64,000 nucleotides of DNA from Candidatus Forterrea multitransposorum CG_2015-17_Forterrea_25_41 (GTDB lineage: Archaea > Iainarchaeota > Iainarchaeia > Iainarchaeales > CSSED10-239): the NCBI GenBank assembly GCA_009392915.1, contig CP045477.1, positions 192,001 through 256,000 of the forward strand, given 5' to 3'. Positions 41,363 to 61,200 of the stretch are shown piece after piece; positions within the stretch are counted from its first letter, which is position 1; the number at the start of each line of letters is the position of its first letter. Position numbers and translations under genes: made by a program. The notes under the pieces are model-generated. The model was not told where the DNA came from and did not search any database. It worked only from the letters and a program-made list of their open reading frames with translations.

Positions 41363-44300
41363 ATGGTTAAAGATAAAAATAATTTAGGCTCAAATGAAAA
41401 CAATGAAAATAAACAAAATATTTTTTCAAGATTTTATAATTATCTTGAAGATAAATATTCTTCTTTATCAAACTGGCTTACAGAAAAAGGAATACCATTA
41501 AATAATTTAAATAATTATTTAGAGGAAAAAGGACTTCCTGCTTTTGCAATAGTTGCATCTATTTTATTATTATTAATCTTTATAATTGTTTTCTTAATTA
41601 TCTTTTCTTTTTCCAGTCAATCAACATTAATTTTTTCTGTTAAAGATTATTCTGGACTTTCAATCAATGATGCTTTTTTAAAAATTACAAATAGTTCAGG
41701 TAAGGAAATCTTTTCAGGAACTGTAAATGATACTGATGTTAAAAAATTAAAATTAAAATTAGGAGAATTATATTCTTTTAAATCAACTAAAGATGGATAT
41801 CCTGATTTTTCAAAATCAATAACTATTACTGATAAAGATCAAAAAGTACAAATTACTTTTTCAGAATCAATTGAGTATGGTATATTAAGAATAAAATTAA
41901 TAGATAGAGATAATAAAGGAATAATTACTTCAGGAACTGCGATCGCAAGATATTCAATTAATAATGCTCCTGAGTCTACAGAAAACATTGTAAATATTGC
42001 AAATGAACATTTTATTACTTTAGAAGTTCCAATGAATAAAGATATTGAACTTTTAGTTAGTGCAGATGGTTATGAAGATTTTAAAGAAACAAATTTTAGA
42101 ATAACTTTAGAAAATCAAGAAAAAGTAATTGAAATGGATATTTCTTCTTTATCTTTTGAAGGTAAAAGTCAAGTTACTTTTGTTGTTTTAGATACAGAAC
42201 AAAATCCAATTGATGGTGCTTTAGTAAGCATATATAATCTTGGAGATGAATTATTAGATTCAAAAAATACAATTGATGGAAGAGCTTTATCTTTTATTGA
42301 TAGTGGTTCTACAATATCTTATAAAGTTGAAAAAGAAGGTTATAGAACATTTGTAAGTGATCCTGAAGTTTCTTTTAGAATTACAAAATCTGAAATAACT
42401 TATAATGTTACTTTAGAAGAGGGTGGAAATTTTTTAGATGTGTTTGTAAAATCTGGTTCTAATTTTTTAGCTCTTGGAGATGTTGCAATTACTGTTTATG
42501 ATTTAAATAATAATATTATTAATTCTGGAAATACAGATGATTTAGGAAATTTAAAATTAACTGGTCTTTCTGATAAAGCACCAATTGTTGTAACTGCTTG
42601 TAAAGAAGATTTCCTTTGTGAAAATTTAACAGTAGATCTTTTAGAAAAAAGTTCAGTTGAGTTTACTTTAGAAAGAATAGATGTAACAAATAGTGCTATT
42701 CTGTCTGTTTTTGTTGTTGATGAAAAAAATTTACCGATCTCAAAAGCTTTTATAAAAATCTATCAATTACTTGAAGATGATAAAGAAGTTCCATACAACA
42801 CATCTCTTCAAACTGATCTTACAGGTTCTCTTTCAATACCTCTAAGAGTTGGAGATTCTTTTATAGTTTATTCATTAGTTGGAGAAGTTCAATATTTTGA
42901 AGAAATTACAATTGATGCTTTAAGAGAAAATAAAATAATTTTTGTAATGGATAATGCTTCTAAAATAATTAAATTAGATCTTTATGATGAAAATGGTTTT
43001 AAACTTACTTCAGGTTCTTTACTTGTAAAAACAAAAGATGGAACTGTTCTTTTTGATGGTAATTTATCTGAAACTGATCAAATAAGTTTTATTTCAGAAG
43101 GCTATAAAGATTTATATGCTGAATACACAGATGTTAATGGTAATAAATCTTCAATTAATTTTAATGCTGATGAATCTGAGTCAGATGGATATATAAGACT
43201 TGATTTTAATAAAGAAGTTAATTTAACAGATTATCCTGTAATTGAGTTTTCAGGAATTGTAGATTCTAAAGGAGTTAAATCAAATTTTGTAACAATAGGT
43301 AAAGAATATTATTTAATTTTTGATGTTTTATTCCCAGAAAATACTTATAAAGGACAAGTACATATTAGAGCTGGTGATGATACTCAAGTTGATGTTGAAG
43401 AAATGAGTTATGGTATAACTGGTTTTTCTGCAATGGATATTTATGATTTTAAATATGGTACAACATATAATAGTTCTCCTCTTCCAGGTTTAATGAATAT
43501 TGATCTTTTAAATGAAGGTTCTTCTCAAGTTTTAAATAAATGGCTTGAACTTAAATGGAATAGTGATCTTCCTTTAGGTAATAAACAAATCAAAGTAAAA
43601 ATAAATGTTATAGATGATTCTTATTCAAAATTAACTTTTAAATATAGAACTTTATTTGAAGAAAATAAATTATACTATAGAGATCCAGTTGACTCTTTAT
43701 TAAACCAAAGTTATTCTTCATCTCAAAAAGGTGCTTTATATGCAGATACAAAAGAAGTAAATATTGATGTTTATAATGTTCCTTTAGATTGTGAAGGTTC
43801 TCAATGTTTGTCATATACTTTTATTGATTCAAAAGGAAATGAATTTTCAAAAAATGATTTCTATGCTGTAAGAGATGAAACTTATTTTTTAAAAGTTAGT
43901 CTTTATTCTTTAGATAATAAACAATTAGATCTTTTAGCAGAAACTTCAAAAAGTTTCCCTTTAATTTCATTTGGTTCTTTTTCAGATAATCTTTATCAAA
44001 ATGAAATAATAAATGATAATTCTTTATTTGAAATTTCAAGAGATGGTTTTTTACTTTCTGAAAATTCTTTAAAAAATATTTATCTTTCATTTATCTCAAA
44101 AGATATTGGTGCTGCATATATTGATCTTAAAGCAACAGATGTTATTTTAGGAAATGAAATTTTAAACAATAGATTAAGTTTTAATGTTTATGATAAAAAA
44201 GAAATGAATGTTTTAGTTTCTCCAAGTAATTATGTTGATTATGGATCAAATTTTACTGTTGATGTTTTAGATTCAGTTTCTCTTGAACCTATTACAGATG

Positions 44301-47300
44301 CTTTTATTTCTTTTTATGATGTTAGAGATACTTTTATTTCTTCTTTAAAACCAAGTAATTCAAATGGAAGGAATGGAAAATATACTATTACAAATAATTT
44401 TAATACTTCAACTGTTAAAATGGTAGTTGAAAGATATGGTTATCTTCCTTATGAAACTGAAATTTATATTATTGATAATACTTTATTAAATGCAATTCCT
44501 TCAGAAATAATTTTTAATTTAGGTCTTGACCAAACAGCATCAACTTCAAATTTTAGTTTAGAAAACTTAGGTAATTATCAAGCAACAAATGTAAGGTTTG
44601 GAGAACCTATTTGGATTGAAGGTAGTGCTGGTATTTATCTTGAAGGAAGAGGTAATCCAATAATTAATAAAAACTCAACTCAAAATTATCAATTGTTACT
44701 TACAACAGAAAATGATGTTGAACTTAAAACAGCATATGCACATCTTCCAGTATATGCATCTGTAGGTCCTAGAGAAGTTACAAAAATATTAAATGTTAGA
44801 ATAAATAAAGGTTTAATGTTAAATGAATGTGTTGAAATTACTCCTTCTGAAGTTTCTTCTTTTGTTGGACTAAATGTTTCTTCAAATTATGCAGATCCTT
44901 TTAATACTCCTTTTGCAGATTATGATTATACTTCAAATACTTCAAATAATCCTATGCTTGCACCTTCTCAAAGTTATTCTAATTATGAAGAATATTTAAA
45001 TTCAAGTGGATATAACATTACTGATTCAACAGATAATGGTTATACTTACACAGATTCTAAAAATTATACTTATCATGCAACTTCTCCTGCTCTTAATTCT
45101 CAAATTACTGAAAACACAACTTATTTTACAATTAAAAATAATTGTTCTCAAGCTATAACTTTTAATCCTCAAGCAGTTTTAACTTCTTCATCATCAAATA
45201 ATAATTTAGAAGTTTCTCTTGCAAACATAACTGTTCTTCCAGGAGAAGAAAAAGTTTATGATGTTATTTTAAAAAATTCATCTGAACTTAAAAGAAAAAC
45301 AACATATACCTATAATGTTTTATGGCATAATAATTATTATTCAATAGCTCCTTCAGTTTTAAATGTTGATCTTTTAGATTTAAGTAGAGCTTTATGGGTT
45401 ATGCCACAACAAATAAATATTCCAATCTCTCAAGTACATCCTCAACAAGCTGCTGAAAATTATACTAGATTTTTTATTAAAAATATAGGTGCTGTTCCAA
45501 TAACTGATATACAAATAAGTCAGTATCCAAAAATGGTGTCTTCTAATATTAAAATAACTGAATATCCAAGACAAGTATCTGTTTTAGAACCAGGAAAAAC
45601 AATTCCTGTTGATTTAAAATTTTCAGTAAATATTAATAAATCTACATTAGATAATGCCTTTATACAAGTAACTGGTAAAGCTGTTGGTATTAGTGAACCA
45701 ATTACTTCAACAACACAATTAGTGTTTTCAATTTCTTCTCCAAATTGCTTAAAAGTAAGTAATAAAAATATTAATTTTGATTTAGAAGTTGGGGAAACAA
45801 GAGCAAGAAATATTACAATTACAAATCAATGTTCTGAACCTGTTACAATAGTTGGAATTGATAAAAAACAACAAGGATATTATCAAGCATATGGGGATAA
45901 TTCTTTTAGAATAACTCCTGCTTCTGGTAATCCAATAATTCCTGTTAACATGTCAAATTCTTATAGAATAGAGTTTACTGCAAATTCTTTAGGTGGTTCT
46001 CCAAAAACACCAATGATACTTCAAGGTAGATTAATGAATTCAGGTAATCCTGTAACTTCAGAAGAGGTTTTAGTTTCAATAACTATAGATGATATAATGG
46101 TTGGAGAAGAAGCTGAAAGAAATATTTCTATTTTATCTTCTCTTCCTTCTTGTGAAGATCCACAAAATATTAATTCATATAATAGACCATTAATTTCAAT
46201 TAAAGATTGTTCTGAAACTTCAGGATATTGTGATGGAGAATCTTCAGCTGAATTAATTTTAAAAAAAGTAAATGAACTTCAAAATGAAATTAAACAATTT
46301 TCTGCACAAACACAATCAAAAGTAATTGATACTGGTTGTACTCTTCAAGATGCATATAGTGGTTTTTGTAAAATATCTGAACTTGGTGGAGGAATTGATC
46401 CTGTTGAGTTTTCTTTCTTTATGCAAAATGATAATGTTACACCTGATTTAATTAAATCTATTTTAACAAAATCAAATTATTCTTTTAAAAATTATTTTGT
46501 TGAAACAAATATTTTTAATAAAGAAATTAAAACTATAAATCAATATTCTTCTTATGGGGTATATGCTGGTGGAAATAAAATATTTGTATCTCCTCACCTA
46601 TCAGGTTGTGGAAAATATACAGTAGAGATTGATGGTTATGTTGCTGCAAGTCCAGATTATATTTATCCTGAAAGAGCATATTATTATATTAATGTTGTAG
46701 AAAAAGATACTAACACTATTCATTGTGAGAAAAATATTGTAAATTATTTAAATTATCTTCCATGGGATCTTTCTTTTAATAAAAACCAAAGAGCAGGAAC
46801 TTGGCTTACTTTATTTACTGGTGATGAAAATTTATCAAAAGCTTTAATTAAAAGTGTGGGTAAGTTTAAGTCAGATGAAATTGATTTAAGATATGTTTAT
46901 AATAAAGATGTTTTATCTACAAGAAATAGTACTTTAAATGTTTCAACTGGAGAGATTTCTGAAAATAAAGAAGCTCTTGCAAAAATTTCTTTTAATGATA
47001 CTTCTTTAAGAAAAAGCTCTTCTCCAGAACAAATAGATATTACTTTAAATTCTCTTTATAATTCTCCTGAAGGTAAAACTTCTGAGTATGCTGTTAAAGA
47101 TTTTTCAAAAGTAATTTCTTCAATGATTTCAGATAATGATTATTCTGCAAAAGTTTGTATTTCTGAAGATAAAACATATATGCTTGTTTTAGATGTTATT
47201 TCAGCAGGAGATTTAACTTTTGTTGATAAAGAAGTAAGTCTTCCTTTAAAGGATGGAGCTTCATGTTCTTTATTAAAAGTTAAATCATCAGTTCCTGAAA

Positions 47301-49378
47301 CTTTAAAGATTACTTCTGATTCTTTAGAGTTTGCAAATATTGGTTTTAAGAAAAATAAAGATGATACTCTTCAAGAGTCATTAGATATTAGTGTTATTGC
47401 AAATAAAGATTCTAACTTTTATATGTGTGTAACTCCAAATTCAGAGACTGCTATCTCAAGTCTTGTTGATAAAAAAATAACTGTAACAGCAACAAGTATT
47501 TATTCTGCAAGTGGTAGTATTGGAAATAGAAGCACAACTTCAGAAGTAGCTTTCTCTTCATGTGCAATCACACCTGAAGATTATCTTTTAGGTATTTATT
47601 CAAATATTTTAACTGAAAATAATAAAGCTGAAGATGATAGAATCTTACCTCAAAATTATACAGCTATTGTAGATTGGGATAAACAATATAATCCTGAAGA
47701 AAAAGAAAAATTATGTTCAACTTTACAAAAGATTGTAAATAGTAAAAAGTATAATGGAGAACTTTTCTTTGATTATGAAGTTTTAGGTTGTGAGATTGAA
47801 GATTCTTCACAAGAAAGAGATTCAAGAATAAGTAAAGGATTACATAATGCTGGACAATATTTCTTTTCTTGTTCAGGAGCTTGTGGACTTTGTTATGGTC
47901 TTTCAGGACTTATAATGCCTACACAATTTGTAGGTGCAATTGTTGATTGTTTAGGTTTCTCTTGTTTATTACCTTCATTAAATATATTTGCATCAAATCT
48001 ATCTAATGGAGAAGGTGGAATATCTTGGCTTTTAGATGAATTTTTTGGATTATTATTAAATGATGATGTTAGTTTCTTTTCAAATATTACAAGTGAGATT
48101 GAAACATGGGTAAGTGGTGTTTTAGGTGTTGGAGGAGCTGCAACAAGTGGAGCTTTAAAAGCTAATGCTGCTTCTGCTGCTGTACCTTTAGATCAAGTTA
48201 CTCAAGACTTAGTTTCACAATCTAGTTATGATCCTACAACACAACAAATATTAGATGATTTAGCAAATCCATCAACAACACCTGCTCCTGTAAATCCATC
48301 AACAACTTCTGGTGTAATTAATGGTTCTACTGAATTAAAAAATTTAAATAGTCAATTAAATAATTTAAATAGATATTTAAGTGGTAATGACAATATTAAA
48401 TTACAAACATTTTCAAACCCACAAGAAGCAGGTAGATTTAGTGATATCCTTAGAAAAATGAATCAAACATCTGGATCTAACTTTGATAAATTGAGATCTT
48501 TATCTACTCAAGAGTTTGATGATTTTGTAAATATTCTTGAAAAACAAAATTTTACAGGTAAAAATAGTCATTTATTCAAAAAAGACTTACTTATTAAAAG
48601 ATTAAAAGATGCTAAAGTAAATGATTTCAAATCAGTTTCAGCTGCAACTTCTTCAAGTGCAGCAGCTACATCTAGTAGTGCAGCTTCAGTTGCTGATGAT
48701 TTCTATGATTACCCTAAAGCAGATTATGATCAAGCAATTAAAAATTTTGATAATGATATTAAAATGCTTGATGATTCAATAAGTAATCTTGAAAATCAAA
48801 AAGCAGCAATTGAAACTAATGCAAAAAGATCATCTGCAAATCCTAAAAAAGCACTTCGTTATAAATCAAAAGTTGATGCTCAAATAAAAGCAATAGATAG
48901 TCAACTTGATGAACTTAAAAAAAGTAAAGATGCTCTTTCAAGTGTTAAATCTAAATTTGCTTCAGCTAAAAATGTAAATGGTACTTATAAAGTTCCAACT
49001 TCTGCAATTGATGATTTATCAAATAATATTCCAAAACAAGCAAAACTTAGCAAATTATCTAAATTTGCAAAAATTAAAGGTGTTGCAAAAAGCTTTGGAA
49101 GAGGCCTTCTTTGTGGTGCTACAGGAAATGCTGCAGGAATATATTCTTTAAAAGAAGAAGGTAAAACAGGACTTAATAAATCAATAGAGTTTTTAAGTAA
49201 AAATGATTTTGAGAAAAATATATTCTATGTTTCAGAAGTTGATATGTTATCTCCAGAAAATGATCAAGAATACGAAACAAGATATACAATTAATATAAAA
49301 CCTTATATCTCTCAAGATCAAAGTATTATTTCTTCAATTCCTACAAAAAGAATTGATTCTTGTACTATAGAAGAATAA
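41363..49378 (+). CDS. Giant (2671 aa) membrane-anchored surface protein: conserved N-terminal cytoplasmic motif + single TM, multiple prealbumin/CarboxypepD_reg-like beta-sandwich repeats, Cys-rich hydrophobic segment, Ala/Ser-rich coiled-coil C-terminal region
   Basis: Uninterrupted 8-kb ORF; TM at aa ~60-85 (AFAIVASILLLLIFIIVFLIIFSF); repeated ~80-aa units of type GxAxIxIYxLxDxxxxxxxxTDxxGxxxI; C-terminal coiled coil (DDSISNLENQKAAIETNAKR...). Confidence 0.75.
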   Translation: MVKDKNNLGSNENNENKQNIFSRFYNYLEDKYSSLSNWLTEKGIPLNNLNNYLEEKGLPAFAIVASILLLLIFIIVFLIIFSFSSQSTLIFSVKDYSGLSINDAFLKITNSSGKEIFSGTVNDTDVKKLKLKLGELYSFKSTKDGYPDFSKSITITDKDQKVQITFSESIEYGILRIKLIDRDNKGIITSGTAIARYSINNAPESTENIVNIANEHFITLEVPMNKDIELLVSADGYEDFKETNFRITLENQEKVIEMDISSLSFEGKSQVTFVVLDTEQNPIDGALVSIYNLGDELLDSKNTIDGRALSFIDSGSTISYKVEKEGYRTFVSDPEVSFRITKSEITYNVTLEEGGNFLDVFVKSGSNFLALGDVAITVYDLNNNIINSGNTDDLGNLKLTGLSDKAPIVVTACKEDFLCENLTVDLLEKSSVEFTLERIDVTNSAILSVFVVDEKNLPISKAFIKIYQLLEDDKEVPYNTSLQTDLTGSLSIPLRVGDSFIVYSLVGEVQYFEEITIDALRENKIIFVMDNASKIIKLDLYDENGFKLTSGSLLVKTKDGTVLFDGNLSETDQISFISEGYKDLYAEYTDVNGNKSSINFNADESESDGYIRLDFNKEVNLTDYPVIEFSGIVDSKGVKSNFVTIGKEYYLIFDVLFPENTYKGQVHIRAGDDTQVDVEEMSYGITGFSAMDIYDFKYGTTYNSSPLPGLMNIDLLNEGSSQVLNKWLELKWNSDLPLGNKQIKVKINVIDDSYSKLTFKYRTLFEENKLYYRDPVDSLLNQSYSSSQKGALYADTKEVNIDVYNVPLDCEGSQCLSYTFIDSKGNEFSKNDFYAVRDETYFLKVSLYSLDNKQLDLLAETSKSFPLISFGSFSDNLYQNEIINDNSLFEISRDGFLLSENSLKNIYLSFISKDIGAAYIDLKATDVILGNEILNNRLSFNVYDKKEMNVLVSPSNYVDYGSNFTVDVLDSVSLEPITDAFISFYDVRDTFISSLKPSNSNGRNGKYTITNNFNTSTVKMVVERYGYLPYETEIYIIDNTLLNAIPSEIIFNLGLDQTASTSNFSLENLGNYQATNVRFGEPIWIEGSAGIYLEGRGNPIINKNSTQNYQLLLTTENDVELKTAYAHLPVYASVGPREVTKILNVRINKGLMLNECVEITPSEVSSFVGLNVSSNYADPFNTPFADYDYTSNTSNNPMLAPSQSYSNYEEYLNSSGYNITDSTDNGYTYTDSKNYTYHATSPALNSQITENTTYFTIKNNCSQAITFNPQAVLTSSSSNNNLEVSLANITVLPGEEKVYDVILKNSSELKRKTTYTYNVLWHNNYYSIAPSVLNVDLLDLSRALWVMPQQINIPISQVHPQQAAENYTRFFIKNIGAVPITDIQISQYPKMVSSNIKITEYPRQVSVLEPGKTIPVDLKFSVNINKSTLDNAFIQVTGKAVGISEPITSTTQLVFSISSPNCLKVSNKNINFDLEVGETRARNITITNQCSEPVTIVGIDKKQQGYYQAYGDNSFRITPASGNPIIPVNMSNSYRIEFTANSLGGSPKTPMILQGRLMNSGNPVTSEEVLVSITIDDIMVGEEAERNISILSSLPSCEDPQNINSYNRPLISIKDCSETSGYCDGESSAELILKKVNELQNEIKQFSAQTQSKVIDTGCTLQDAYSGFCKISELGGGIDPVEFSFFMQNDNVTPDLIKSILTKSNYSFKNYFVETNIFNKEIKTINQYSSYGVYAGGNKIFVSPHLSGCGKYTVEIDGYVAASPDYIYPERAYYYINVVEKDTNTIHCEKNIVNYLNYLPWDLSFNKNQRAGTWLTLFTGDENLSKALIKSVGKFKSDEIDLRYVYNKDVLSTRNSTLNVSTGEISENKEALAKISFNDTSLRKSSSPEQIDITLNSLYNSPEGKTSEYAVKDFSKVISSMISDNDYSAKVCISEDKTYMLVLDVISAGDLTFVDKEVSLPLKDGASCSLLKVKSSVPETLKITSDSLEFANIGFKKNKDDTLQESLDISVIANKDSNFYMCVTPNSETAISSLVDKKITVTATSIYSASGSIGNRSTTSEVAFSSCAITPEDYLLGIYSNILTENNKAEDDRILPQNYTAIVDWDKQYNPEEKEKLCSTLQKIVNSKKYNGELFFDYEVLGCEIEDSSQERDSRISKGLHNAGQYFFSCSGACGLCYGLSGLIMPTQFVGAIVDCLGFSCLLPSLNIFASNLSNGEGGISWLLDEFFGLLLNDDVSFFSNITSEIETWVSGVLGVGGAATSGALKANAASAAVPLDQVTQDLVSQSSYDPTTQQILDDLANPSTTPAPVNPSTTSGVINGSTELKNLNSQLNNLNRYLSGNDNIKLQTFSNPQEAGRFSDILRKMNQTSGSNFDKLRSLSTQEFDDFVNILEKQNFTGKNSHLFKKDLLIKRLKDAKVNDFKSVSAATSSSAAATSSSAASVADDFYDYPKADYDQAIKNFDNDIKMLDDSISNLENQKAAIETNAKRSSANPKKALRYKSKVDAQIKAIDSQLDELKKSKDALSSVKSKFASAKNVNGTYKVPTSAIDDLSNNIPKQAKLSKLSKFAKIKGVAKSFGRGLLCGATGNAAGIYSLKEEGKTGLNKSIEFLSKNDFEKNIFYVSEVDMLSPENDQEYETRYTINIKPYISQDQSIISSIPTKRIDSCTIEE

Positions 49379-49487: not shown

Positions 49488-51167
49488 ATGTTAAGAAATA
49501 AAAAAGGATTTAATTTATTTACTGCTTTAATCTCATTGATGCTTTTATCAATAACTCTAGTTTTTATTTTTAATATGGTTCAAACTGAAGAAAATTATTT
49601 AGAATTAATAAATAATCAATCTCAAGCTTCTGACCTCTTAACAATTGCAGATATTTCAAGAGCTGATGCTTTTAATAATTTTGTTGTTTCTTTTAGAGAA
49701 CAATGGATGTCTTTTAGAAGTGATCCTCGTTCTGAAATCATACTTAAAAGAAAAGATATTATGCTTGATTGGGATGGTTTTGTAGATTATTTTGCAGATT
49801 ATATTTTCTTTGATAATAGTTTTGAAAATTATTTTGCAGATAATATGGTTAGATCTTTAAATTATACAAATCCACCAACAGGTTATGCAATAAATGTTCC
49901 TAATTATTCTCGTGATGATTTATCTAGTATTATTAAAACAGCTTTTCTTGAAGCTGGAGATGATAAAATAAAAGTTGTAAGTTGTGAAAGAGAAGATGAG
50001 GTTTGTTTAGGTACACTTTATTTTACAATTGATACTAGAAAACTTTCTGCACAAGAATATGAAAAACTTCCAATGATAACTGTTAAAAGAAATGTTGATG
50101 ATGAAGTTATTCAAAGACCAGTTTTTGCAAAAAGAGCATACAGGATATATATTCCCTGGAGAGGTTTTCAAGCTTTAAGGACTGTTAGAAATTTTGCACT
50201 TGATGCTGATCTTGAAAAAGGAGAAACAACAGCTCAAATTATTGAATATTCAAAAGATTCAAGAGGTTTTTTAAACCCCTATATTCATTATACTCTCAAT
50301 AGTGCAAAACTTGGTGTTTGTGATATTGATAGTTGTGCTCTAAGAAAAGATTTATTTAAAACTGTTGAGTTTAATGGGTTTACTGGAGATGCATGTTCTA
50401 ATCCGCCTGGAGTTAGTAATGTTTCTGACAATGGAGGAATTACTGGATCTTTTACTGGAGAAGTTTCTCTTTCTAATAATCATAGTTACAATATTCAAGA
50501 TATAGATGGAACTGTAAAACCTATATATAATGATTTAGTTAAAACAACTATAGAAAACAATTTAGAATATAGAACTGATATAATACATGCAGGAAATAAT
50601 TTGCCATCAATCTCTTCTTCTTCAATTTTAGATGATGAATGTCAAATGTCTTTAACAACTGGAAATTTTTCAATATGTGATATACGTGTAAGACTTCCTT
50701 CTCCAAAAGTTACAAAAGAAGTTATTTCTGTAGGAACTGTTTCAGAATCTTTAAGTAGTTTATCTCAAGTTTCATTCAATCCTTCTGGTAGTTTTAATAA
50801 AGCTTCAAACTTAAGTCTCTCTATTGATGATGATTTAAATATTAATGTTTTTGATCAAGAAAGTACTATTCCTAATGAAACTGATAATCAATATCTATCA
50901 TGTACAACAATTGACTATATTGATTTATTATTTAAATTTGAAGAACAAGATGAAAAGTATATTTTTTCTCAAGATTCTAAAAATATTTATATTTTAATTC
51001 AAGATAGATTTTCAGATTATACTTTCTTTAATTCATTTGGAAGCGTTCCTAACTTTAGTGGAGGATATTTTCAAAAAAGAGAACTTCCTTCATTTACAGG
51101 AGGACAAGGTTGGACTTGTAAAAGTTATGAAGCAAATGAAGATGATGCAGCATGTGTTGCAGGTTAA
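49488..51167 (+). CDS. Pilin-like secreted protein (class III signal peptide), 559 aa
   Basis: N-term MLRNKKG|FNLFTALISLMLLSITLVFIFNMV; remainder hydrophilic with scattered Cys pairs. Confidence 0.6.
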   Translation: MLRNKKGFNLFTALISLMLLSITLVFIFNMVQTEENYLELINNQSQASDLLTIADISRADAFNNFVVSFREQWMSFRSDPRSEIILKRKDIMLDWDGFVDYFADYIFFDNSFENYFADNMVRSLNYTNPPTGYAINVPNYSRDDLSSIIKTAFLEAGDDKIKVVSCEREDEVCLGTLYFTIDTRKLSAQEYEKLPMITVKRNVDDEVIQRPVFAKRAYRIYIPWRGFQALRTVRNFALDADLEKGETTAQIIEYSKDSRGFLNPYIHYTLNSAKLGVCDIDSCALRKDLFKTVEFNGFTGDACSNPPGVSNVSDNGGITGSFTGEVSLSNNHSYNIQDIDGTVKPIYNDLVKTTIENNLEYRTDIIHAGNNLPSISSSSILDDECQMSLTTGNFSICDIRVRLPSPKVTKEVISVGTVSESLSSLSQVSFNPSGSFNKASNLSLSIDDDLNINVFDQESTIPNETDNQYLSCTTIDYIDLLFKFEEQDEKYIFSQDSKNIYILIQDRFSDYTFFNSFGSVPNFSGGYFQKRELPSFTGGQGWTCKSYEANEDDAACVAG

Positions 51168-51297: not shown

Positions 51298-54200
51298 ATG
51301 GGTCTTAGATCTTTTTACTTTAAACAAGAAGAAAAATATTTTAATTTTCTAGACAGGATGGAGAAAAAAGGAATTAATCTATACAAAATAATAGATCCTT
51401 TAGAAAAGAATGGTATACCTACTTTTTTAGTATTTAATATATTTATTCTACTTTTAATTTTATTTTTAGTTTATTTATTTGTTGGACAAACTCCATTAAC
51501 TGATGAAAACTACACTTTAACTTTTGTAAATTCTCAAGACCAGCCAATCTCAAATCAAGCAATTGAAATTCTTCTTAATAACAATAGAAAGATTTTAACA
51601 ACTAATGAATTTGGAATTTCAGAAATTACTGATGTTGAAATTAAATCTTATGATTTAGAAATAAGTAGTGAAAAGTATACTCTTGAAAATCCATTAACTT
51701 TAGATTTTAAAGAAAACACTTCTCATAAAATATTTTTAAAATCAAAAACTTCTGTTTTATCAAAAACTATATATTTTAAAACAAATAATGAATTATATAA
51801 TTCTCCATTAACAATTTCAAATATTTCTTGTTCAAATAATTCTCTTTATACAAAAAATAATCTTCAAACAAATGATGGTTCTTTAACTTTAGATGATATT
51901 CCTACAGATTGTGGATATTTAGAAGTTGCTATTGAATCTTCAACAATTAATGCTGTTGGTTCTTTAGAAGTTTCAGAAGACTCTCCTTCTGGAGATATTG
52001 ATTTAAGTTTTGAAGGTGTTGAAACTGGAAGTGCAAAAATAATTATTCTTGATAAAGATTTAAAAGTGCCTATTCAAAACATAAGTATTTCTATTCTTAA
52101 TAATCAAAGTCAAATTGTAACTTCTTCAATAACAAATGCAAATGGTATAGCATCTTTTGAAGAAATAAATGTTGGAACATATAATCTTTTAATCTATGAT
52201 GAAGAAGAAAGATACAAGCCAGTAACTGAAAATGAAAGTTTAGAACTTGTAGTATATGATTCTGTTTTAGAAGAAAAAGAAGTTCTTTTAGAAAAAGCAT
52301 TCATTGGTAAATTAAATTATAAAATTATTGATACTCAAAGTAAAGAAGCTATTGAAAATGTAGCTGTAACAATATACAAAGGAAATGATATTTTAAAAAC
52401 AATTAATTCAAATAAAGAAGGCGATGTTTCTTTTGGTGTTGAAGAAAATATTTCTTATAAAGTTTTATTTAATCATCCTAATTATATAATAAGAACTGAA
52501 AATAATCAAAGAATAAGTGAATCTATTAAACAAATTGCCTTAACTCCAATAACAAATGAAAATTTAAGAAGTTTAGTTATTACTGTTGTTGATGATTTTG
52601 CAAAACCTGTTGATTTTGCAACCATAAGATTATGGGATGATACTGAAGATATTATTCTTAGAACAATAACAGCTGATATTTATGGTAAAGCTGTTTTTAC
52701 AAATTTAGATTTAGGTAAAGAATATAGACTTGATGCAACTAAAGATCAATTTACTTCAAATCCTACAAATCCTTTTAGAATCTCAGAACAAGAAATAACT
52801 GAAGAAACTATAAAGATGAGTATAGGTGAAGGAACTTTTAATATTAATTTAGTTTCTGAGTATGGAGAGTTCTATCAAGGAAATGTATATGTTTATGATG
52901 CAACAAATGATACTTTAATGCAAGATAAAACCACAACAACAAACCAAGATGGTTTTACAATAATAAAGATTAGAGCTGATAAACAAATTTATTTTGTTAT
53001 TGATAATTTAGATTCTAAATTTATAACTCCAAAGTATTCAACAAATGCAAATGAAATAAATACTTTAAATTTTACAATTCCAGGAACTGTTGGGCAAACA
53101 TCTGGTATTGAATTTTTAGGTTTTTATAATGCTGAAGGAGAAAAAATAAATTCAGTGGCTGCAGGTATGCAAGTTACTGCTAAATATTTATTAAATGTTA
53201 CAAAAGAATATTCTAAAGCAGTTGCACATATAAGAACTGGAGAAGTTCCAAGTCCTTTATGTTCTTCAAACACATATAATGTTTTAGAAGATTTAATTTT
53301 TATAAAAGATGTACGTTATGCAAAATCTGATAAGATCGGTTCATTAACTTTTACTCCATGTAATGGAGAAGGTATTGATTTTTCAAATAAAACTTTAAGA
53401 AATGCAAAATGGTTTAATTTAACTTTAAATAATCCAATGCAAGGAAGTTATTTAATTGAAGCAGATGTTGTTGTTTTAGATACAGCTTTTGCAAATCAAG
53501 CTTTAAACTATAGAGCAGAGTTTTATCAAGGTTCAAGTATTATAAGATCACCTGTTGATTCTTCTTATAGTTCTTCAACAAGTAAACAAAATTTATATGC
53601 TCAAGCAAAACAAGTTCAATTATTTTTAGGAACTCAAAATCAATGTACTTCACTTATGTGTTATGCATTTATTATGACAAATACACAAAATAATTTATCT
53701 AGAAATATAATTGATAGTTATAAAGCTAAATTAAATAATGATTATAGACTTTCATTTAGTTTAAATGTTTTAGATGGAAAAATTGCACCAAACTCAATGC
53801 TTGTAATCTCTTCAGGTAGTTCTGTTGATTTAGATGGTTATTCTATTACTTCAGGAACTGGTTCTCTTTTAGTTGGAGAGGATTATGATGGAATTGATTT
53901 AGGTTCTTTAGTTTCAAATGATTTAATAACTGGAGAGCTTGCTTTTAAAGTAATAGATGATGTTTCTGATGTTTTAGACTTTTCAATAGTTTCTAATGGA
54001 GAAGTTGTATTCTCTAAAAAAATATATCTTGAAATTGATCCTGCAAAAGAAATGTTTGTAGAGTTTGTTCCAAGAAAAATTGTTCCTTTTGTTTCAAATG
54101 ATTTACTTGTTGTTGTAACTGATGATTCTAATAATTTTATTTCAAATGCAATTGTTGAACTTTCAATTAATGATAGAAGTTTAACTGTAGGTTCAACTAA

Positions 54201-57200
54201 TCAAGAAGGATTATTTGGTCATGTAATTCCAGCAACTGATCTTGGAGATGTTTTAAAGATTGTTGTAAAGAAAGATGATTATAAAACAGTTAAAACAGAA
54301 ATTGTAATTGATGATAAATTAATCACAACAATTCCTGAAAAAATTGATTTAACAATTGATTCTTCAAAATCAATAAGAGAAGTTTATAATTTTAGTTTAT
54401 ATAATGAATCTTATGTTCCTTTAACAATTGTTTCTGCATCAGCATTTACTGATAATGAATTTGTTGATCTTGATTTAGGTATTGAAGAAAATATCATAAA
54501 TGGTGTTTCTCAAAATGATATTTCTCTAACAGCAACATTAACAGATAAAGGTATTAATCTTTATAATCAACAAACAATTAATACAGAAGTTGCAATTAAA
54601 ATTAAAAGTGAAGAAATGAATAAAACTTGGGTTATTACAGTTCCATTAACTGTTAGAATAGTTTTAGGAAATTCTCTTGATTCTCTTGAATGTTTAAAAG
54701 TTCTACCTCTTGAAGGAACAATTAGAGCTAAATCTCAAGAAACAAAAACTTTAGATTTTACTTTAGAAAACACTTGTACTTCAAAGAATGTTTCTGTTGA
54801 TTTAGGAACTATTAATGCAATGGTTGATTGGGGTAATGAATCTGAAACTGGACTTTTATCAATTGTTGTTTCTGGTAAAGAATATATTTTAGAAAACTTA
54901 ACTGAAACTGAAATATTATCAACTCTTTTAAAGAAATCAAAAACAACTTTACAATTAAAGTTTAAAGCGCATAAAATAGTTTCAGATGTTAAAATACCAA
55001 TTATTTATTTTACTTCAAAGAAAGGAAATATTAATGGTGTTGATGAAGTTAAAACAAGACTTCCCTTAAAAACAATTATTAATGATTATTCAGAATGTAT
55101 TGAGATCCCAAGAGAGACAATTCCTGCTCTTGCATGTAATTGGTATTCTGGACTTAATAACTATGGTAATTATTATGGTGGAGTAAACCAAGGAGGAGCT
55201 TTCAATAATCCTTATTATGGTGGAAATAATTTTAATGCAACATATAATCCTAATAACCAATTTAATTCTAGAAATTACTATCAACAAGGTTCTGGTTATG
55301 TTACACAACAACAAGGTGTTTTTAATCCAAATTATAATTTAGTGGGACAAACAAATTATACAGGAAATCAAAATTCTGTGTTTAACCCTTATAATTTCCC
55401 TTCCTCACAATATCAAAATACTTTTGGAAATTATGATAGTTATAATTTTACATCAGGTTATCCTCAAGGTAACTATGGAAACATGGGTTTTACAAATAAC
55501 ATGAATTGTCCAACAAGACCATTTTATATTAAAAATAATTGTTCTGAAGCTGTTGATATTAAACTTGATTCAATATATGGTTTAACAATTGCAACAGATA
55601 AAGAATTTACAATAGAACCTGGAGATACAGAAGAGATTAGTGTTTTAGGTGGAGAGTCTATGGGTACTTTTAAAATACCTGTAAATGCAAAAGCATCTCT
55701 TGCATCTAATGAAAATTATTCAACAATTGGAGATGTTTTATTTTCTTTAACATTACCAATTAGTTTTATGTCTTCAAATTGTATACAAGTAACTCCTCAA
55801 AAATTAGATTTTTCAAATATTATTGATCCTAACTATCAACTTGTAAAAGTAATTAATACTTGCTTTGCACAAGGATACAGAATAGTTGAAGTTAATTATC
55901 TTGATTTAATTTCACTTGACTTTGATGGTGTATCTTTCTTAAATGTAGGAGATATGCAAGGAAGAATTCAACCAATTAAAGTTGATACTTTAACAAATAC
56001 AACTACAAATGAACCAATGGAAGTTTGGGAAATTGCATTAAGAAGAAATCCTGAAATTGAAAATACTAAGTCTGTAAAAGAGTATATGAATAAATATTCT
56101 GATTATTCTTTAGCTGCTGGTGTTATTTCTTCATTTAGAAAAATATTAATTGATGTTGAAGACGCAGTTAACTTAAAGTTTTCTTTACAAGTTGGACTTC
56201 AACCACCAACAGGACAAGCTTCACTTATCTATAATAATATAGGTATGGAACTTAAGGATAATTTCCAATGGTTAATTTTAGATAATCCTGATAATATAGG
56301 TCTTTTAAAAGATTTATTTGGTGATGAAGCTATTAGTGATGAAGAAATTTCATTTATTGATACTTCTGTAAAATTAACATATACCCTTGATCCTAATAAC
56401 AATGCAGTTATTATTAATGTTCCTGAAGGAGAACTTGCTGCAGATAAATTCACACAAATTGATCAAGACCCTACAAGTAAAAGATGTTTCTATGGATATG
56501 TTAAAGATTTCCCTATAACTGGTATTGTAGATACTTCATATATACAAAACTCTGGTAAATATTATTTAAATAATAAATATGATCCATTAGATGTAAGTCT
56601 TGAATTTATTACTAGAAATAAAAATATCTTTAAATTATGTTTTGAAAGACCAGTTGAATCATTTGATAATATTTTAGCTACAAATGATAATTACAATATC
56701 TTAGATTTATTTAAAACAAGTAAAGATTCTCTTACAAACCAAAACTTTGAGATTTGGAGAATTTTAGATACTACAAATAAAGGTAAATACCAAGGTAGTA
56801 CTTTAATTGGTGTAAAAGCTGATGTTTCAACAAAAGAAGTTGGCTCTAAAGAAGAGGGTGACTCTGGAAAAACTGATCCTTCTCAAACAACAGATGATTC
56901 TTTAGTTTGTCTTGCTCCTGACCTTTCAACAAATCTTGGACATACAGGTTCTAATGTTTATTCTCAATATGGATTTGATAAAATATTACTTGATTACTTA
57001 CCAGAAGATATTACAGATTCTTCTTGTGAAGATTATTTCTGTGATCAAGAACAATTCTATAATTTCTTAACAAAGAAAGCAGATAAATTAAAAGAAGTTA
57101 CTTCAAATAGTAATTATATAAATATTAATGGTATTTATTTTGAAAAAGAAAATAATACTATTAAAGAATCAAAAGTAAAAGTAGATCTTTGTGCAAACGG

Positions 57201-58269
57201 CGTTTGTGATGGCTTTGATGTTTCTGGTAAAGAAACTTTAAATGATTATATAAATCAAGCAAATAAAGTTTTAAATGCTGTTCCAGCAGACTTAAAGAAA
57301 ATAACAATCATTAAGACTAAAGGTTTAACTACTAATGGAAATAAAATTGTAACAATTGGTGATTATCAATATACAACTGTTGATTATTTCTTAGAAAATT
57401 ATGATTCTTTTGAGAACAAAGCAATAGTTTATGCAAACATGGATGTATACTTTGGATCTTCTCCTCAAGTATTCAGTTCTAACCTTAAGAAATTTTCTGG
57501 TAGTTCTGAAGATTTAAATAAAAAAATCTTAGCAAACTTTAATAATACTTTAACAAGTAACTATACAATTGAGTATGCTGAGGCTGTAAATATTTCAAAA
57601 CCAGGAACTTATACAACAGTTATTTCTCTTGAAAATATAGATTCTCAAAATAAAAGAAAAATAAATTTAACAATAGGTTCTAAAGTTTCTGAGATTAGTG
57701 AAGAATATAGTAAAAATATTTTATTTACATATCCAATTAATCCTGAATATACAATGAAAGAAAAGAGTGATAAATATAATGCTCCTTTCATTAAGAATAA
57801 AAATTATACTTTAATTGATTATCCTTCAGAAATTATACAAGATGGATATATCTTTAAGTTTGAGGATATGGCAAATTATGATTTTATTGATTCAAGACCA
57901 TTTTATTTCAATAAACCATATAGTTTTAAGATTATTGAAACTAATGAAAATAATACAGAGCTTGATTTAATAGAAAATAAAGCAAGTTTATTCTTACTTA
58001 AAGATAGAACAAATAAAAAGATTAGTTTGTATTCAAAACCACAAATTACAAGTCAAGATACAAAGAATAACACTGTCTTTTTAAAAACAACTACTAATAA
58101 TAATTATATGATATATAATTTACAAATGAATAATGTTTTACCAAAATTAACATATTCATCAATGAAAGATGTATTTAATGAAATTAAAAACGAGAATGTA
58201 TGTTTCAATATAACTGAAGGAACAACTCCTGAACTTATGTTGTGGCATAATCCTGAAAAATTTAAATGA
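51298..58269 (+). CDS. Giant (2323 aa) membrane-anchored surface protein, paralogous N-terminus to neighbours, prealbumin-like repeats, internal N/Q/Y/G-rich low-complexity segment
   Basis: Uninterrupted 7-kb ORF; N-term MGLRSFYFKQEEKYFNFLDRMEKKGINL...EKNGIPTFLVFNIFILLLILFLVYLF; many VxVxDxxxxPIxNAxI...TNxxGxxxF repeats; aa ~1283-1400 N/Y/G/Q-rich. Confidence 0.75.
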   Translation: MGLRSFYFKQEEKYFNFLDRMEKKGINLYKIIDPLEKNGIPTFLVFNIFILLLILFLVYLFVGQTPLTDENYTLTFVNSQDQPISNQAIEILLNNNRKILTTNEFGISEITDVEIKSYDLEISSEKYTLENPLTLDFKENTSHKIFLKSKTSVLSKTIYFKTNNELYNSPLTISNISCSNNSLYTKNNLQTNDGSLTLDDIPTDCGYLEVAIESSTINAVGSLEVSEDSPSGDIDLSFEGVETGSAKIIILDKDLKVPIQNISISILNNQSQIVTSSITNANGIASFEEINVGTYNLLIYDEEERYKPVTENESLELVVYDSVLEEKEVLLEKAFIGKLNYKIIDTQSKEAIENVAVTIYKGNDILKTINSNKEGDVSFGVEENISYKVLFNHPNYIIRTENNQRISESIKQIALTPITNENLRSLVITVVDDFAKPVDFATIRLWDDTEDIILRTITADIYGKAVFTNLDLGKEYRLDATKDQFTSNPTNPFRISEQEITEETIKMSIGEGTFNINLVSEYGEFYQGNVYVYDATNDTLMQDKTTTTNQDGFTIIKIRADKQIYFVIDNLDSKFITPKYSTNANEINTLNFTIPGTVGQTSGIEFLGFYNAEGEKINSVAAGMQVTAKYLLNVTKEYSKAVAHIRTGEVPSPLCSSNTYNVLEDLIFIKDVRYAKSDKIGSLTFTPCNGEGIDFSNKTLRNAKWFNLTLNNPMQGSYLIEADVVVLDTAFANQALNYRAEFYQGSSIIRSPVDSSYSSSTSKQNLYAQAKQVQLFLGTQNQCTSLMCYAFIMTNTQNNLSRNIIDSYKAKLNNDYRLSFSLNVLDGKIAPNSMLVISSGSSVDLDGYSITSGTGSLLVGEDYDGIDLGSLVSNDLITGELAFKVIDDVSDVLDFSIVSNGEVVFSKKIYLEIDPAKEMFVEFVPRKIVPFVSNDLLVVVTDDSNNFISNAIVELSINDRSLTVGSTNQEGLFGHVIPATDLGDVLKIVVKKDDYKTVKTEIVIDDKLITTIPEKIDLTIDSSKSIREVYNFSLYNESYVPLTIVSASAFTDNEFVDLDLGIEENIINGVSQNDISLTATLTDKGINLYNQQTINTEVAIKIKSEEMNKTWVITVPLTVRIVLGNSLDSLECLKVLPLEGTIRAKSQETKTLDFTLENTCTSKNVSVDLGTINAMVDWGNESETGLLSIVVSGKEYILENLTETEILSTLLKKSKTTLQLKFKAHKIVSDVKIPIIYFTSKKGNINGVDEVKTRLPLKTIINDYSECIEIPRETIPALACNWYSGLNNYGNYYGGVNQGGAFNNPYYGGNNFNATYNPNNQFNSRNYYQQGSGYVTQQQGVFNPNYNLVGQTNYTGNQNSVFNPYNFPSSQYQNTFGNYDSYNFTSGYPQGNYGNMGFTNNMNCPTRPFYIKNNCSEAVDIKLDSIYGLTIATDKEFTIEPGDTEEISVLGGESMGTFKIPVNAKASLASNENYSTIGDVLFSLTLPISFMSSNCIQVTPQKLDFSNIIDPNYQLVKVINTCFAQGYRIVEVNYLDLISLDFDGVSFLNVGDMQGRIQPIKVDTLTNTTTNEPMEVWEIALRRNPEIENTKSVKEYMNKYSDYSLAAGVISSFRKILIDVEDAVNLKFSLQVGLQPPTGQASLIYNNIGMELKDNFQWLILDNPDNIGLLKDLFGDEAISDEEISFIDTSVKLTYTLDPNNNAVIINVPEGELAADKFTQIDQDPTSKRCFYGYVKDFPITGIVDTSYIQNSGKYYLNNKYDPLDVSLEFITRNKNIFKLCFERPVESFDNILATNDNYNILDLFKTSKDSLTNQNFEIWRILDTTNKGKYQGSTLIGVKADVSTKEVGSKEEGDSGKTDPSQTTDDSLVCLAPDLSTNLGHTGSNVYSQYGFDKILLDYLPEDITDSSCEDYFCDQEQFYNFLTKKADKLKEVTSNSNYININGIYFEKENNTIKESKVKVDLCANGVCDGFDVSGKETLNDYINQANKVLNAVPADLKKITIIKTKGLTTNGNKIVTIGDYQYTTVDYFLENYDSFENKAIVYANMDVYFGSSPQVFSSNLKKFSGSSEDLNKKILANFNNTLTSNYTIEYAEAVNISKPGTYTTVISLENIDSQNKRKINLTIGSKVSEISEEYSKNILFTYPINPEYTMKEKSDKYNAPFIKNKNYTLIDYPSEIIQDGYIFKFEDMANYDFIDSRPFYFNKPYSFKIIETNENNTELDLIENKASLFLLKDRTNKKISLYSKPQITSQDTKNNTVFLKTTTNNNYMIYNLQMNNVLPKLTYSSMKDVFNEIKNENVCFNITEGTTPELMLWHNPEKFK

Positions 58270-58296: not shown

Positions 58297-61200
58297 ATGG
58301 GACTTAAAAAGTTATACTATAATTTAGAAGATAAATATTACAGTTTTGTTGAAAGAACAGGACTTTATAAGGTTACTGATAAAATAGATAAGGTTATGCC
58401 TTCTTTTATTTTATTTATTCTTTTAATTGTAATATTAATATCTGGACTTGTCTTTTTACTACTTCCTTCTTCTCAAGTAAAAGACGGTGTTGATATTCAG
58501 TTTGAAGTGATTGATGCTGAGTCTGGTGCTCTTCTAGAGGATGTAACTTTAATGCTTACAACAAGTAAAGATATTTCTTCTATAACAACTTCTTCTGAAG
58601 GACTTACAGATTATATTAAAATTCCTAAAAATACCTCTTATCAAATAGATATTGTTGAAGATTCTTATGAAAATTTCAATGATATTTTTTCAACAAAAGA
58701 GTCTTCTGAAACTATAACTATAGCTTTAGAACCTTCTGGTGTTGAACCATTAACTGTTTCATATTCTTTTGATGTTGTTGATTCTAAAACTACTTTAATT
58801 GTAAATTCTACTGGTGCAATTTCTTTTAAATGTATGAACGGATCTTTAGCACCTAATCCAGTTAGAGTTTTAAATGGTAATGTTTCAGTTGAGGCATCTC
58901 CTGAATGTAATCTTGCAATTGATTCAATTTCATTTAATGGTTATTTATCAAAAGATAATATTCCAATAAATGCAATGACTGGAACAATTTCTTTAGAACC
59001 AACAGAAATTAATTTCCAAGATGATACTTATAAAGTTGTAATAAATGTTAAAAATTCATCTAATGAAGCTTTATCAAATATTAAGGTAACTTTTACAAAT
59101 GATTATGGTATAATTGATTCTAAAACAACTTCAAGTAATGGAAATGTAACTTTTGAAGATTTAGATTCTGGAGAATATATTGTAAATTTTTCTGATCAAA
59201 GAGCAACTCCTATATACAGTACTCTTTCAAGAACATATTATATTTCATCTGATATTACAAAATCAGAAACTTTATCTTCTGATGTTTCTGGATATATTTT
59301 TGTAAGAATAATTGGTGAAAATTCAGGTGTTTTAGAAGGAGCTGAAGTAAATTTAAAAACTTCAGAAAATAATACTATTGAAACTAAATTATCTGATGTT
59401 GATGGTGAAGTAATTTTTACAGTTTCTGAAATTAAAGATTATAATGTAGTTGTTGATGCTGAAGGTTATTTAATAACTAGAAAACTTGTTGAAGCAAAAG
59501 AAGTAATGCCAACAAACCCTATTGTTATTCCTTTACCTTTAATAACACCTGCAACTTTAGCTTCTTTAAAGGTACAAGTTACAACTTGGGAAGGAAAGCC
59601 TTTTAAGTTTGCAAAAGTTGTTTTGTATGATGCAGAAACTGGTTTTTTAACAGACTATAAACCAGTTTTAACAAACTATGATGGAAATGCTACAATAAAT
59701 ATTACTTCTGGAAAATATATTGCAAAAGCTATTAAAGGAAGTGTTACTGGTGAGTCATCAGAGTTTGAGTTTAATGTTAAATATCCTGAACTTTCTGGTA
59801 CTGTAACTATTCCAATGGGAATTAGTGAAGGTGTATTGAATGTTTCAGTTGTTGATAATGATGGTAATCCTGTTCCATATGCCATAATAGATTTATATGA
59901 TAGATATAGTTACTATAATTTCACACCAGCAGTTCCTTTAAAAAAGACAACTACAGATTCACAAGGAAATATTGAAATGGTTGTGGATGCTGATATTGAA
60001 TATTATGTTGTTGCAACTGATTTAGATGATGTTTATGGAAAAACACAATCTAGATTTGTTTATGTTGGTGCAGATTCTCAAGAGTCTCTAGAAGTTACTC
60101 TTTATCCAAGAAATAGTTCTACAACAAAACCAAGAATGGTATTTAATGGAATATATAAAGATGACTTAAAAGTTGAAGATAACTTAAAGGCTGGAGAAGA
60201 TTACAAAATCAGATATAATCTTTTAGTTCCTCAAAATAGAACTGGAGATGATGTTTTTGAAGAAATTGGTTTAATGTTAAGAACTGGTTCAACTTCAATG
60301 ATTGAAAATGATTCTTTATTTATTAAATATCTAGATGTTCCATATTTAGATAGTATACAAAAATATACACAATTTAATCTTAATGCACCTCATGAAAATG
60401 AAGGTTATTATGATGAAGATAGTTTAACTGAAGGAAACTTTAAATGGGCAAAAGCAACATTAAAAGAAGGTCCTATTAATTATAATGGTTCTTTTGGTTT
60501 CTATAATGCTTATGAAATTGAAGCAATAATTTCTGTTAAAGACACAGCTGTCTTTGGAGAAGAACTTAAAATATTTAGTTTAGGTTATGGTCTTAATGAA
60601 GATGATGAATATGAAACATATAATTCATATTTAGGACCTAATGAAGAAATTGAATATTATGATGTTTATGATCAAATAACATTTGGTGTTGGAAATGAAC
60701 TTTTCTGTTCTGATGAGTTTTGTTTCTCTTCAACAATTGTTGATGTTTCAGAAGACTTAAGATATGATGTTACAAATAATTTTGCAGCTATGCCAAATAA
60801 AGATTATAAGTATAGTTTTACATTAATTAATAATTCTCTTGAAACTAAATATTTATCTTCTAGATTTATTTTAGAAAATATTGATGAAGGTTTAGATTTT
60901 AAAAATATAAAAATCTATAAACCAGATGGAGAAGTATACACCCAAACAAATACTAATGAAAATGAATTTGATATACCAATAACTTCTTTAGTTTCAAAAC
61001 AAAAAGTAACTGGAGAAATTATTTTTATGCCTAAACTTAAAGGTACAAGAGAGTTATCTATTAAATTTATTTCTGATCAAAAAATAAAATTCATTAATCA
61101 ATTATTCATAGATGTTCTTTCAGATAAAACATTTGAAGTAGAGATTGAACCTTCAATAATTCCTTCTGCAAAGAGTTTCTCACTTGTGATTAATGCTGTT

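Follow-up and report, generated by a model that had tools for sequence, protein, structure and literature searches.

A pilin-like protein encoded between giant proteins in the genomes of Iainarchaeota

The stretch of DNA analyzed here, 64,000 nucleotides of the genome of Candidatus Forterrea multitransposorum (contig CP045477.1, positions 192,001 to 256,000; below, the window), encodes a pilin-like protein of 559 amino acids (49488–51167, plus strand) that is set between two much longer proteins, giant A (2671 amino acids; 41363–49378, plus strand) and giant B (2323 amino acids; 51298–58269, plus strand), and followed by a third, giant C (1867 amino acids; 58297–63900, plus strand). The host belongs to the Iainarchaeota (Diapherotrites), uncultured DPANN archaea, and we know of nothing experimental on the cell surface or the cell contacts of this phylum. 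Sequence comparison, structure prediction and the arrangement of the same genes in related genomes lead us to suggest that the 559-residue protein resembles a minor pilin or pseudopilin and acts together with the giants.

The pilin-like protein and its family

The open reading frame (ORF), which begins with ATG, and its translation were compared with 5.8 billion proteins in a word-indexed search, which returned 22 close homologues, all hypothetical, the closest named ones coming from metagenome-assembled genomes (MAGs) labeled 'Candidatus ainarchaeum / Iainarchaeum / Diapherotrites'. With a profile, searched against 1.84 billion cluster representatives, the set grew to 217 matches at E <= 1e-3, 184 of them at E <= 1e-10, and nearly all of these representatives stem from Iainarchaeota/Diapherotrites (DPANN) genomes. 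When one genome per GTDB species was scanned, 74 loci were found, with labels that are nearly all Iainarchaeum, Diapherotrites or 'archaeon' and with the complete genome AR10 (CP010424.1) and Ca. Iainarchaeum andersonii among them; the only name that databases give to the relatives is 'hypothetical protein [archaeon]'. Family members range from 345 to 790 amino acids and share a conserved part of approximately the first 240 residues, beyond which the C-terminal half is variable and rich in cysteine. By these comparisons, the 559-residue protein is a member of an unnamed, Iainarchaeota-centred family. Clusters of the Iainarchaeota type were also encountered at four loci (L034, L035, L038 and L039) on contigs assigned to MAGs labeled Falkowbacteria, Chloroflexota and Thaumarchaeota, labels that are probably the result of binning errors.

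The protein begins with MLRNKKG↓FNLFTALISLMLLSITLVFIFNMVQTEE, where the arrow marks the proposed cut after Gly7. The predicted class III leader, MLRNKKG (residues 1–7; 49488–49508, plus strand), is followed by a hydrophobic H-domain, or alpha1-N segment, FNLFTALISLMLLSITLVFIFNMVQT (residues 8–33; 49509–49586, plus strand), which comprises 26 uncharged residues and is the most highly conserved part of the protein. Among the 201 distinct N-termini compared, numbered from the invariant phenylalanine at +1, position −1 is occupied by glycine (163) or alanine (38) and by no other residue, position −2 is lysine or arginine in 192 of the 201 (96%), position +2 is threonine or asparagine, and position +5 is threonine (188) or serine (13) and never glutamate. 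The uncharged stretch after the site measures 24–26 residues, 24 or 26 in most sequences, and the leader varies in length between 4 and 51 residues (median 7) while the motif at the site stays fixed. In a 58-sequence alignment, residues 7–20 form the most conserved block, with a mean frequency of the top residue of 0.75 compared with 0.17–0.55 elsewhere. Since the G/A, Phe and T/S positions are fixed and the helix behind them is conserved, this segment has the appearance of a processing site joined to a packing helix and not of a generic anchor.

The N-terminus, KKG↓F followed by 26 uncharged residues, conforms to the general definition of a class III signal, and the family site agrees with the [KRD][GA]↓ pattern at which characterized archaeal pilins are processed, although the latter have Q/A/L-type sites where this family has F at +1 and T/S at +5 (PMC4371748). 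In its appearance the motif is closer to bacterial minor pilins and pseudopilins than to typical archaeal sites, G↓F(T/N)LFTAL resembling bacterial G↓FTL(I/L)E and in particular G↓FTLIE. The bacterial rule, G↓F-x-x-x-E, nevertheless does not hold, because only the phenylalanine at +1 is present and the glutamate at +5 is replaced by threonine or serine in 100% of the sequences; the absence of a Pfam N_methyl match, the archaeal host and a length 3–5 times that of PilX or GspI are further differences from the bacterial proteins. Ordinary Sec signals and anchors share the basic n-region and the hydrophobic segment with the pilin-like protein. However, a Sec signal of the signal peptidase I type has an h-region of ~7–15 residues and a small-x-small site, whereas here the uncharged stretch, 24–26 residues in length, exceeds what a cleaved Sec signal would have, no A-x-A site follows it and the helix runs to residue 78. 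Secreted proteins encoded in the window at 28606, 37755 and 38192 have classical Sec signals without the class III motif.

Structure models were obtained with AlphaFold2. The full-length model, computed from a 21-sequence alignment (predicted local distance difference test score, pLDDT, 74.7; predicted template modelling score, pTM, 0.74), consists of one helix spanning residues 10–77, an alpha/beta domain, a second long helix (residues 339–360), a C-terminal part made up largely of beta strands and a disordered tail. A model of residues 1–295 from 29 more diverse sequences (pLDDT 83.6) has the helix at residues 10–78 and strands between residues 177 and 222. In both models the predicted N-terminal helix, which is unbroken and resembles pilin alpha1 (residues 10–78; 49515–49721, plus strand), packs on the beta-sheet domain. 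The core of this globular domain (residues 161–235; 49968–50192, plus strand) is conserved in two alignments (conservation 0.55) and contains C166, C173 and a PWRGFQA motif. Bacterial minor pilins (PilX, PilE, PilV, ComP) and pseudopilins (GspI/GspK, XcpV/XcpX) are the best structural matches; a Foldseek search against the PDB gave no match, and a profile search against PDB sequences returned a chance match only. As far as predicted models can tell, the fold thus supports the likeness to pilins, if weakly. Eight cysteines (C166, C173, C278, C283, C303, C472, C544 and C556) are invariant among close homologues, and most of them are also retained in the wide alignment, which suggests that the protein has an extracellular, disulfide-bonded head; no C-terminal transmembrane segment is present.

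Giant proteins and a fixed gene order

The giants have a common architecture, with a single N-terminal transmembrane (TM) helix, many cysteines and no C-terminal anchor, and with extracellular repeats of the CarboxypepD_reg, bMG3, SpaA, SdrD_B and Big_1-type Ig-like families. Giant A combines the conserved cytoplasmic N-terminal motif and one TM helix with a huge Ig/MG-like ectodomain, and giant B has the same type of N-terminal anchor and CarboxypepD_reg/SdrD_B/SpaA-like repeats. In the three giants of the window, the cytoplasmic motif region ahead of the TM helix is ~30–70 residues long; the motif common to the giants, Y..LEDKYY.F.D.L..KG(I/V)P.Y...D.LE.(K/R)G-IP(A/S/T)FP, contains an internal duplication of 'D.LE.KGIP'. 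A homologue search with the first 110 residues of giant B yielded a single, near-identical fragment. The first-pass annotation of this DNA had placed the pilin-like gene inside a cluster of giant genes, which is indeed its position. Further genes of the cluster follow to the right of the window, where the corresponding record (L085) encodes a 964-residue protein with a Sec-type signal (15642–18536) and then giant D (18552–25604), of at least 2351 residues and with two extra internal hydrophobic segments. Directly before the TM helix, A-type giants carry [KR]G[ILV]P in 37 of 39 sequences; B-type giants mostly have asparagine or another residue at this junction, with glycine in 12 of 48 only, and giants C and D of this genome have neither glycine nor alanine there. 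The idea that all giants might be class III substrates was rejected because of these B-type, C and D junctions, and the giants as a group are, judging from their N-termini, signal-anchored and not class III proteins.

The arrangement of these genes is conserved to an unusual degree. In all seven contigs inspected, down to 20–25% identity, the order is giant, pilin-like protein, giant, giant, with a protein of 2600–3100 residues on one side, one of 2300–2500 residues on the other and then the third giant. The 74 genome loci show the same order on every contig of sufficient length, and each cluster across the phylum has one pilin-like copy. All giants fall into a single BLAST cluster of 150 proteins from 73 loci; within it, the upstream giant has its best match in window giant A in 53 of 53 loci and the first downstream giant has its best match in giant B in 53 of 55. 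Since this synteny is near-invariant, the order A, pilin-like, B is ancient and fixed. The functional link to the giants that had been proposed from the position of the gene, together with the question whether the two co-occur in other genomes, therefore finds support in these comparisons, as the order is kept in essentially every locus across the phylum. The papers that could be searched contain no account of a pilin-like gene fixed between paralogous giants across a whole phylum.

Several loci differ in the details of the cluster. Orthologues of giant A carry extra modules in two of them, an NLPC_P60 cell-wall peptidase domain in L003 (648–9938) and a weak CLIPPER_2 match in L006 (1360–9942), a domain content that hints at giant A as a means of bringing hydrolytic activity to the envelope of another cell. 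Directly upstream of giant A, 13 loci have a gene of the exosortase/archaeosortase family (TIGR04178, 32–38 bits with a cut-off of 23), at 1202–1834 in L009, 287–928 in L010, 34–618 in L049 and 385–1284 in L061, as well as in nine more loci; an exosortase-like gene is also present in the AR10 record (653,810–654,367). In the window this position is taken by a polytopic membrane protein of 111 residues (40858–41193, plus strand) that is kept in the same place in close relatives (5 loci). The proteins of the cluster were considered as possible archaeosortase substrates and this was rejected, neither the pilin-like protein nor the giants having a C-terminal sorting signal. In the variant locus L165, a short relative of the pilin-like protein (257 residues, MKG↓FSLFTPLV; 8658–9431, minus strand) lies between an exosortase-like gene and a giant and directly adjoins a T2SSE ATPase gene.

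Type IV filament genes and a possible adaptor role

No T2SSE, T2SSF or Peptidase_A24 match was found among the window ORFs scanned. The flanks of the window that were read on the 663,598-bp Joint Genome Institute (JGI) metagenome contig Ga0100390_10000002, 6.5 kb on the left side and 10 kb on the right, had none either. This agrees with the first-pass annotation, which had seen no pilus assembly ATPase (PilB/FlaI) or platform protein (PilC/FlaJ) gene in the window and had supposed that the machinery is encoded elsewhere. Related genomes lend support to that supposition, in so far as gene neighborhoods can, because T2SSE, T2SSF-like and small pilin genes adjoin the same cluster there. A T2SSE ATPase is encoded divergently upstream of giant A in L010, L056, L081 and L084; in the P0114 locus it has 767 residues and lies ~1 kb from giant A. 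The ATPase of L056, L081 and L084 is recognizable as the same one by a shared N-terminal signature, ...VVKExGGKRxLIFD...LAEVYERVYDE, and the L084 ORF scores 62.8 bits on Pfam T2SSE.

A scan of JGI metagenome contigs for the ATPase signature was evaluated for the best 80 of 97 relatives, and the window's own contig is not among these best 80. A giant, or an ORF with the N-terminal motif of the giants, lies within 4.5 kb on the opposite strand in 23 of the 50 ATPase loci that extend at least 3 kb upstream, and 18 of these 23 neighbors have their best match in window giant A. Downstream of the ATPase follow a protein of ~780 residues and then several small proteins, ~150–260 residues long, with KG↓Q or RG↓Q class III N-termini; the ~780-residue protein of AR10 scores 24.6 bits on T2SSF (E 2.7e-5), close to the cut-off of 25.2. 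In the complete AR10 genome, the ATPase (650,006–652,285, minus strand), the T2SSF-like gene and the small KG↓Q pilins are 12 kb from giant A (664,541–673,069), the pilin-like gene (673,116–674,588) and giant B (674,893–682,902), and exosortase-like and secreted-protein genes occupy the interval between the ATPase and giant A on the strand opposite to the ATPase. AR10 and Ca. Iainarchaeum andersonii, reference genomes of the Diapherotrites, have been reported to encode type IV pili (PMC8561730). ATPase loci without adjoining giants tend to have a lower GC content (median 0.32 vs 0.39) and stand beside RPA, MCM or TFB genes, which fits an unlinked arrangement in the genome of the window, with its GC content of ~25%. 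Recurrent neighbors of the ATPase, ~345 and ~442 residues in length, were examined as candidate prepilin peptidases and rejected, as they are TFB and RPA or have no match.

On balance we favor the interpretation, with appreciable reserve, that the 559-residue protein is a minor-pilin- or pseudopilin-like adaptor of a giant surface apparatus of the Iainarchaeota, handled by type IV filament (TFF) machinery that is encoded elsewhere in the genome. The precursor would enter the membrane via its N-terminus and an archaeal prepilin peptidase would cut off MLRNKKG, exposing the new N-terminus FNLFTAL... and a hydrophobic helix of ~26 residues that would extend as a long alpha1 into the extracellular alpha/beta domain. 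This pilin-type helix would then be handled by a TFF machine consisting of the T2SSE ATPase with its distinctive N-terminal domain, the T2SSF-like platform and the small KG↓Q pilins, a machine that would be encoded elsewhere in the genome of the window and beside the cluster in many relatives. Located at the tip or the base, the pilin-like protein may serve as the adaptor that couples the anchored giants A, B and C (and D) to the filament or membrane platform, the giants being the adhesive or contact surface of the cell. In this manner it probably ties the giants to a pilus-type machine, and the role of the apparatus is likely to be adhesion or cell-cell contact.

Bacterial minor pilins and pseudopilins are tip or priming adaptors that join the filament to large partners such as PilY1. 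Among archaea, the class III proteins of TFF systems, i.e. minor pilins and large pilin-like adhesins, have the same basic leader ending in [KR][GA], an H-domain of ~20–26 residues and an extracellular, cysteine-containing domain, and they have the same genomic ties to a T2SSE ATPase, a T2SSF/TadC-like platform, small pilins and huge Ig-rich surface proteins (PMC4858521, bioRxiv 10.64898/2026.04.22.720090). Archaeal TFF loci indeed often carry large Ig-rich, adhesin-like proteins (bioRxiv 10.64898/2026.04.22.720090; PMC4858521). Unlike them, however, the pilin-like gene is fixed between paralogous giants of several thousand residues, and the cluster in the genome of the window is unlinked from the machinery. 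Unlike the described archaeal pilin families, moreover, the protein has no sequence match to any of them.

Several observations weigh against an adaptor of this kind. No Pfam family was found for the 559-residue protein or for 58 diverse relatives, the NCBIfam comparison gave only a sub-threshold N-terminal match to the minor pilin ComGF (16.3 bits vs a cut-off of 80), and none of the curated cut-offs for pilin families was reached (Pfam N_methyl, Class_IIIsignal/DUF361 and archaeal pilin DUFs; NCBIfam pilins). In the genome of the window, the 41 kb that precede the giant cluster and the ~10 kb that follow it are free of TFF genes, and neither the window nor any of the flanks scanned, those of the relatives included, yielded a prepilin peptidase. 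The protein is far larger than filament-forming pilins, and a basic-Gly junction also precedes what appears to be the plain signal anchor of giant A. Some of these facts can be read as pointing to an uncleaved signal anchor, in which case the protein would be a bitopic scaffold, chaperone or anchor whose conserved TM helix lies against those of the giants in the membrane, with no need of a peptidase or of TFF machinery. The N-terminal TM anchors of the giants, placed after basic residues and, in giant A, after [KR]G[ILV]P, the lack of a TFF or peptidase gene in the window and the failure to reach any Pfam or NCBIfam pilin model are all compatible with this alternative, which we regard as unlikely but as a serious competitor. 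A plain anchor, however, needs no invariant G/A, Phe and T/S positions while its leader varies from 4 to 51 residues, and since B-type giants as well as giants C and D lack glycine or alanine at the junction, the rule appears to be specific to the pilin-like protein (and giant A). In the models, furthermore, the TM helix runs unbroken into a 68-residue helix packed on the sheet, as it does in pilins, and genes for a TFF ATPase, platform and pilins often directly adjoin the cluster.

An N-terminus of class III type and a long alpha1 helix would also suit the major, filament-forming pilin of a dedicated pilus, many copies of which would polymerize via this helix into a thick fibre, with the giants as separate adhesins that share only its regulation. 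The very high conservation of the helix, expected for packing in a filament, and the single copy per cluster throughout the phylum would be in line with such a role, which we nevertheless consider improbable: lengths of 345–790 residues with a variable, cysteine-rich C-terminal half are typical of minor or tip pilins, and the TFF loci of relatives already encode small KG↓Q pilins that fit the part better. That the N-terminus is a chance likeness or the ORF miscalled can be excluded, even in a genome with ~25% GC, where N-termini rich in Lys, Asn, Ile and Phe are common, because conservation extends over the full length in 22 close and more than 200 distant homologues, lineages of 35–51% GC included, and is accompanied by invariant cysteines and motifs, conserved synteny and a confident structure prediction. 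A more far-reaching version of the adaptor interpretation, speculative and in our view doubtful, is that the cluster and the TFF genes constitute a single hallmark organelle of the Iainarchaeota, in which a dedicated motor, the T2SSE ATPase with the T2SSF-like platform, would extrude, hold or retract the giants via the pilin-like protein as a priming or tip subunit and giant A would perhaps be a 'giant pilin' with an unprecedented conserved leader of 45–90 residues.

The SPEARE proteins of the Nanohaloarchaeota, giant surface proteins of DPANN archaea reportedly described by Hamm et al. in 2019, offer a comparison for the apparatus as a whole. Both are extracellular proteins of several thousand residues in DPANN archaea with small genomes, with cell-cell contact as the presumed role of the SPEARE proteins; within the comparison made, no relationship between the families was seen, and the giants of the window lack protease or restriction-endonuclease domains in Pfam. 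We know of no report of a pilin-like gene embedded among those for SPEARE. The comparisons presented here define a phylum-wide gene set (giant A, pilin-like protein, giant B, giant C and more), tied to a specific type IV filament ATPase/platform locus and marked by one small, easily recognized family. As a simple rule of annotation, the presence of [KR][GA]F[TN]LFTAL close to the N-terminus would bring together ~200 proteins that are now called hypothetical. Makarova et al. 2016 (PMC4858521) had remarked on 'missing' DPANN pilins, for which the pilin-like protein is now a candidate, and it provides a concrete target for metaproteomics, cryo-electron tomography and heterologous cleavage assays.

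Other class III-type proteins and genes of the window

Every ORF of the window was tested for an N-terminus that has [KRDE][GA] among residues 1–20 and, behind it, 20 hydrophobic residues carrying one charge at most. The first-pass annotation had listed four ORFs with class III-type N-termini, including the pilin-like gene; all four exist as described, but the count rises to five with the addition of an 81-residue protein, MPSKRQKG↓MVLISVIATALFVL..., that has a cysteine-rich tail, CGDLTCNYSYGENPLNCPQDC, and is encoded at 33122–33367 (plus strand) just upstream of LemA (33490–34041). The sole other match, an internal start in a DoxX gene, is an artefact.

The remaining three ORFs form an operon on the minus strand (155–6414), in which a small pilin-like protein is flanked by two large proteins that both combine a class III-type N-terminus with LamG domains. 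The first gene of the operon (4006–6414) encodes 802 residues, beginning with MKRLNQRG↓ASEIL, with two LamG domains (Laminin_G_3 at 1.3e-36) and a weak N-terminal match to DUF7289. A TafC match of this protein was considered as a pointer to Tat fimbriae and rejected, being confined to the LamG region and far below the cut-off. The second gene encodes the small protein of 176 residues (MFLRKEKG↓AANLF; 3463–3993), for which only 9 close homologues were found, none of them in a new gene context, and its stop overlaps, at 3463, the start of the third. The latter (155–3463) encodes 1102 residues, MNQKG↓VTSLF followed by LamG, fibrinogen-like GGGWT, PKD-like and Gly-rich domains, with scores of 50 bits (cut-off 30) for the fibrinogen-like domain, YCDxxxxGGGW, and of 2.6e-23 for the C-terminal Gly_rich_2 match. 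Judged by its domains, this protein has an unusual adhesin architecture on a class III-type N-terminus. The large proteins of the operon are reminiscent of adhesins described by Makarova et al. (PMC4858521), large class III proteins with LamG-like DUF2341 domains for which a place at the pilus tip was predicted. Nothing related to TFF systems follows the operon in the 6.5-kb left flank.

The window, an AT-rich region (~25% GC over the 64 kb), also contains housekeeping genes, among them those for a form III RuBisCO, phosphoenolpyruvate synthase, the XPD helicase, NurA, LemA and an M48 peptidase; a scan for sigma-70 promoters and terminators was uninformative, the host being an archaeon. A further gene encodes a HerA/Zot-like P-loop ATPase (20402–22924, minus strand) that is split by an intein with a LAGLIDADG homing endonuclease. 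It is directly preceded on that strand by the gene for a 226-residue membrane protein with no family match (22921–23601); start and stop of the two genes overlap by 4 bases.

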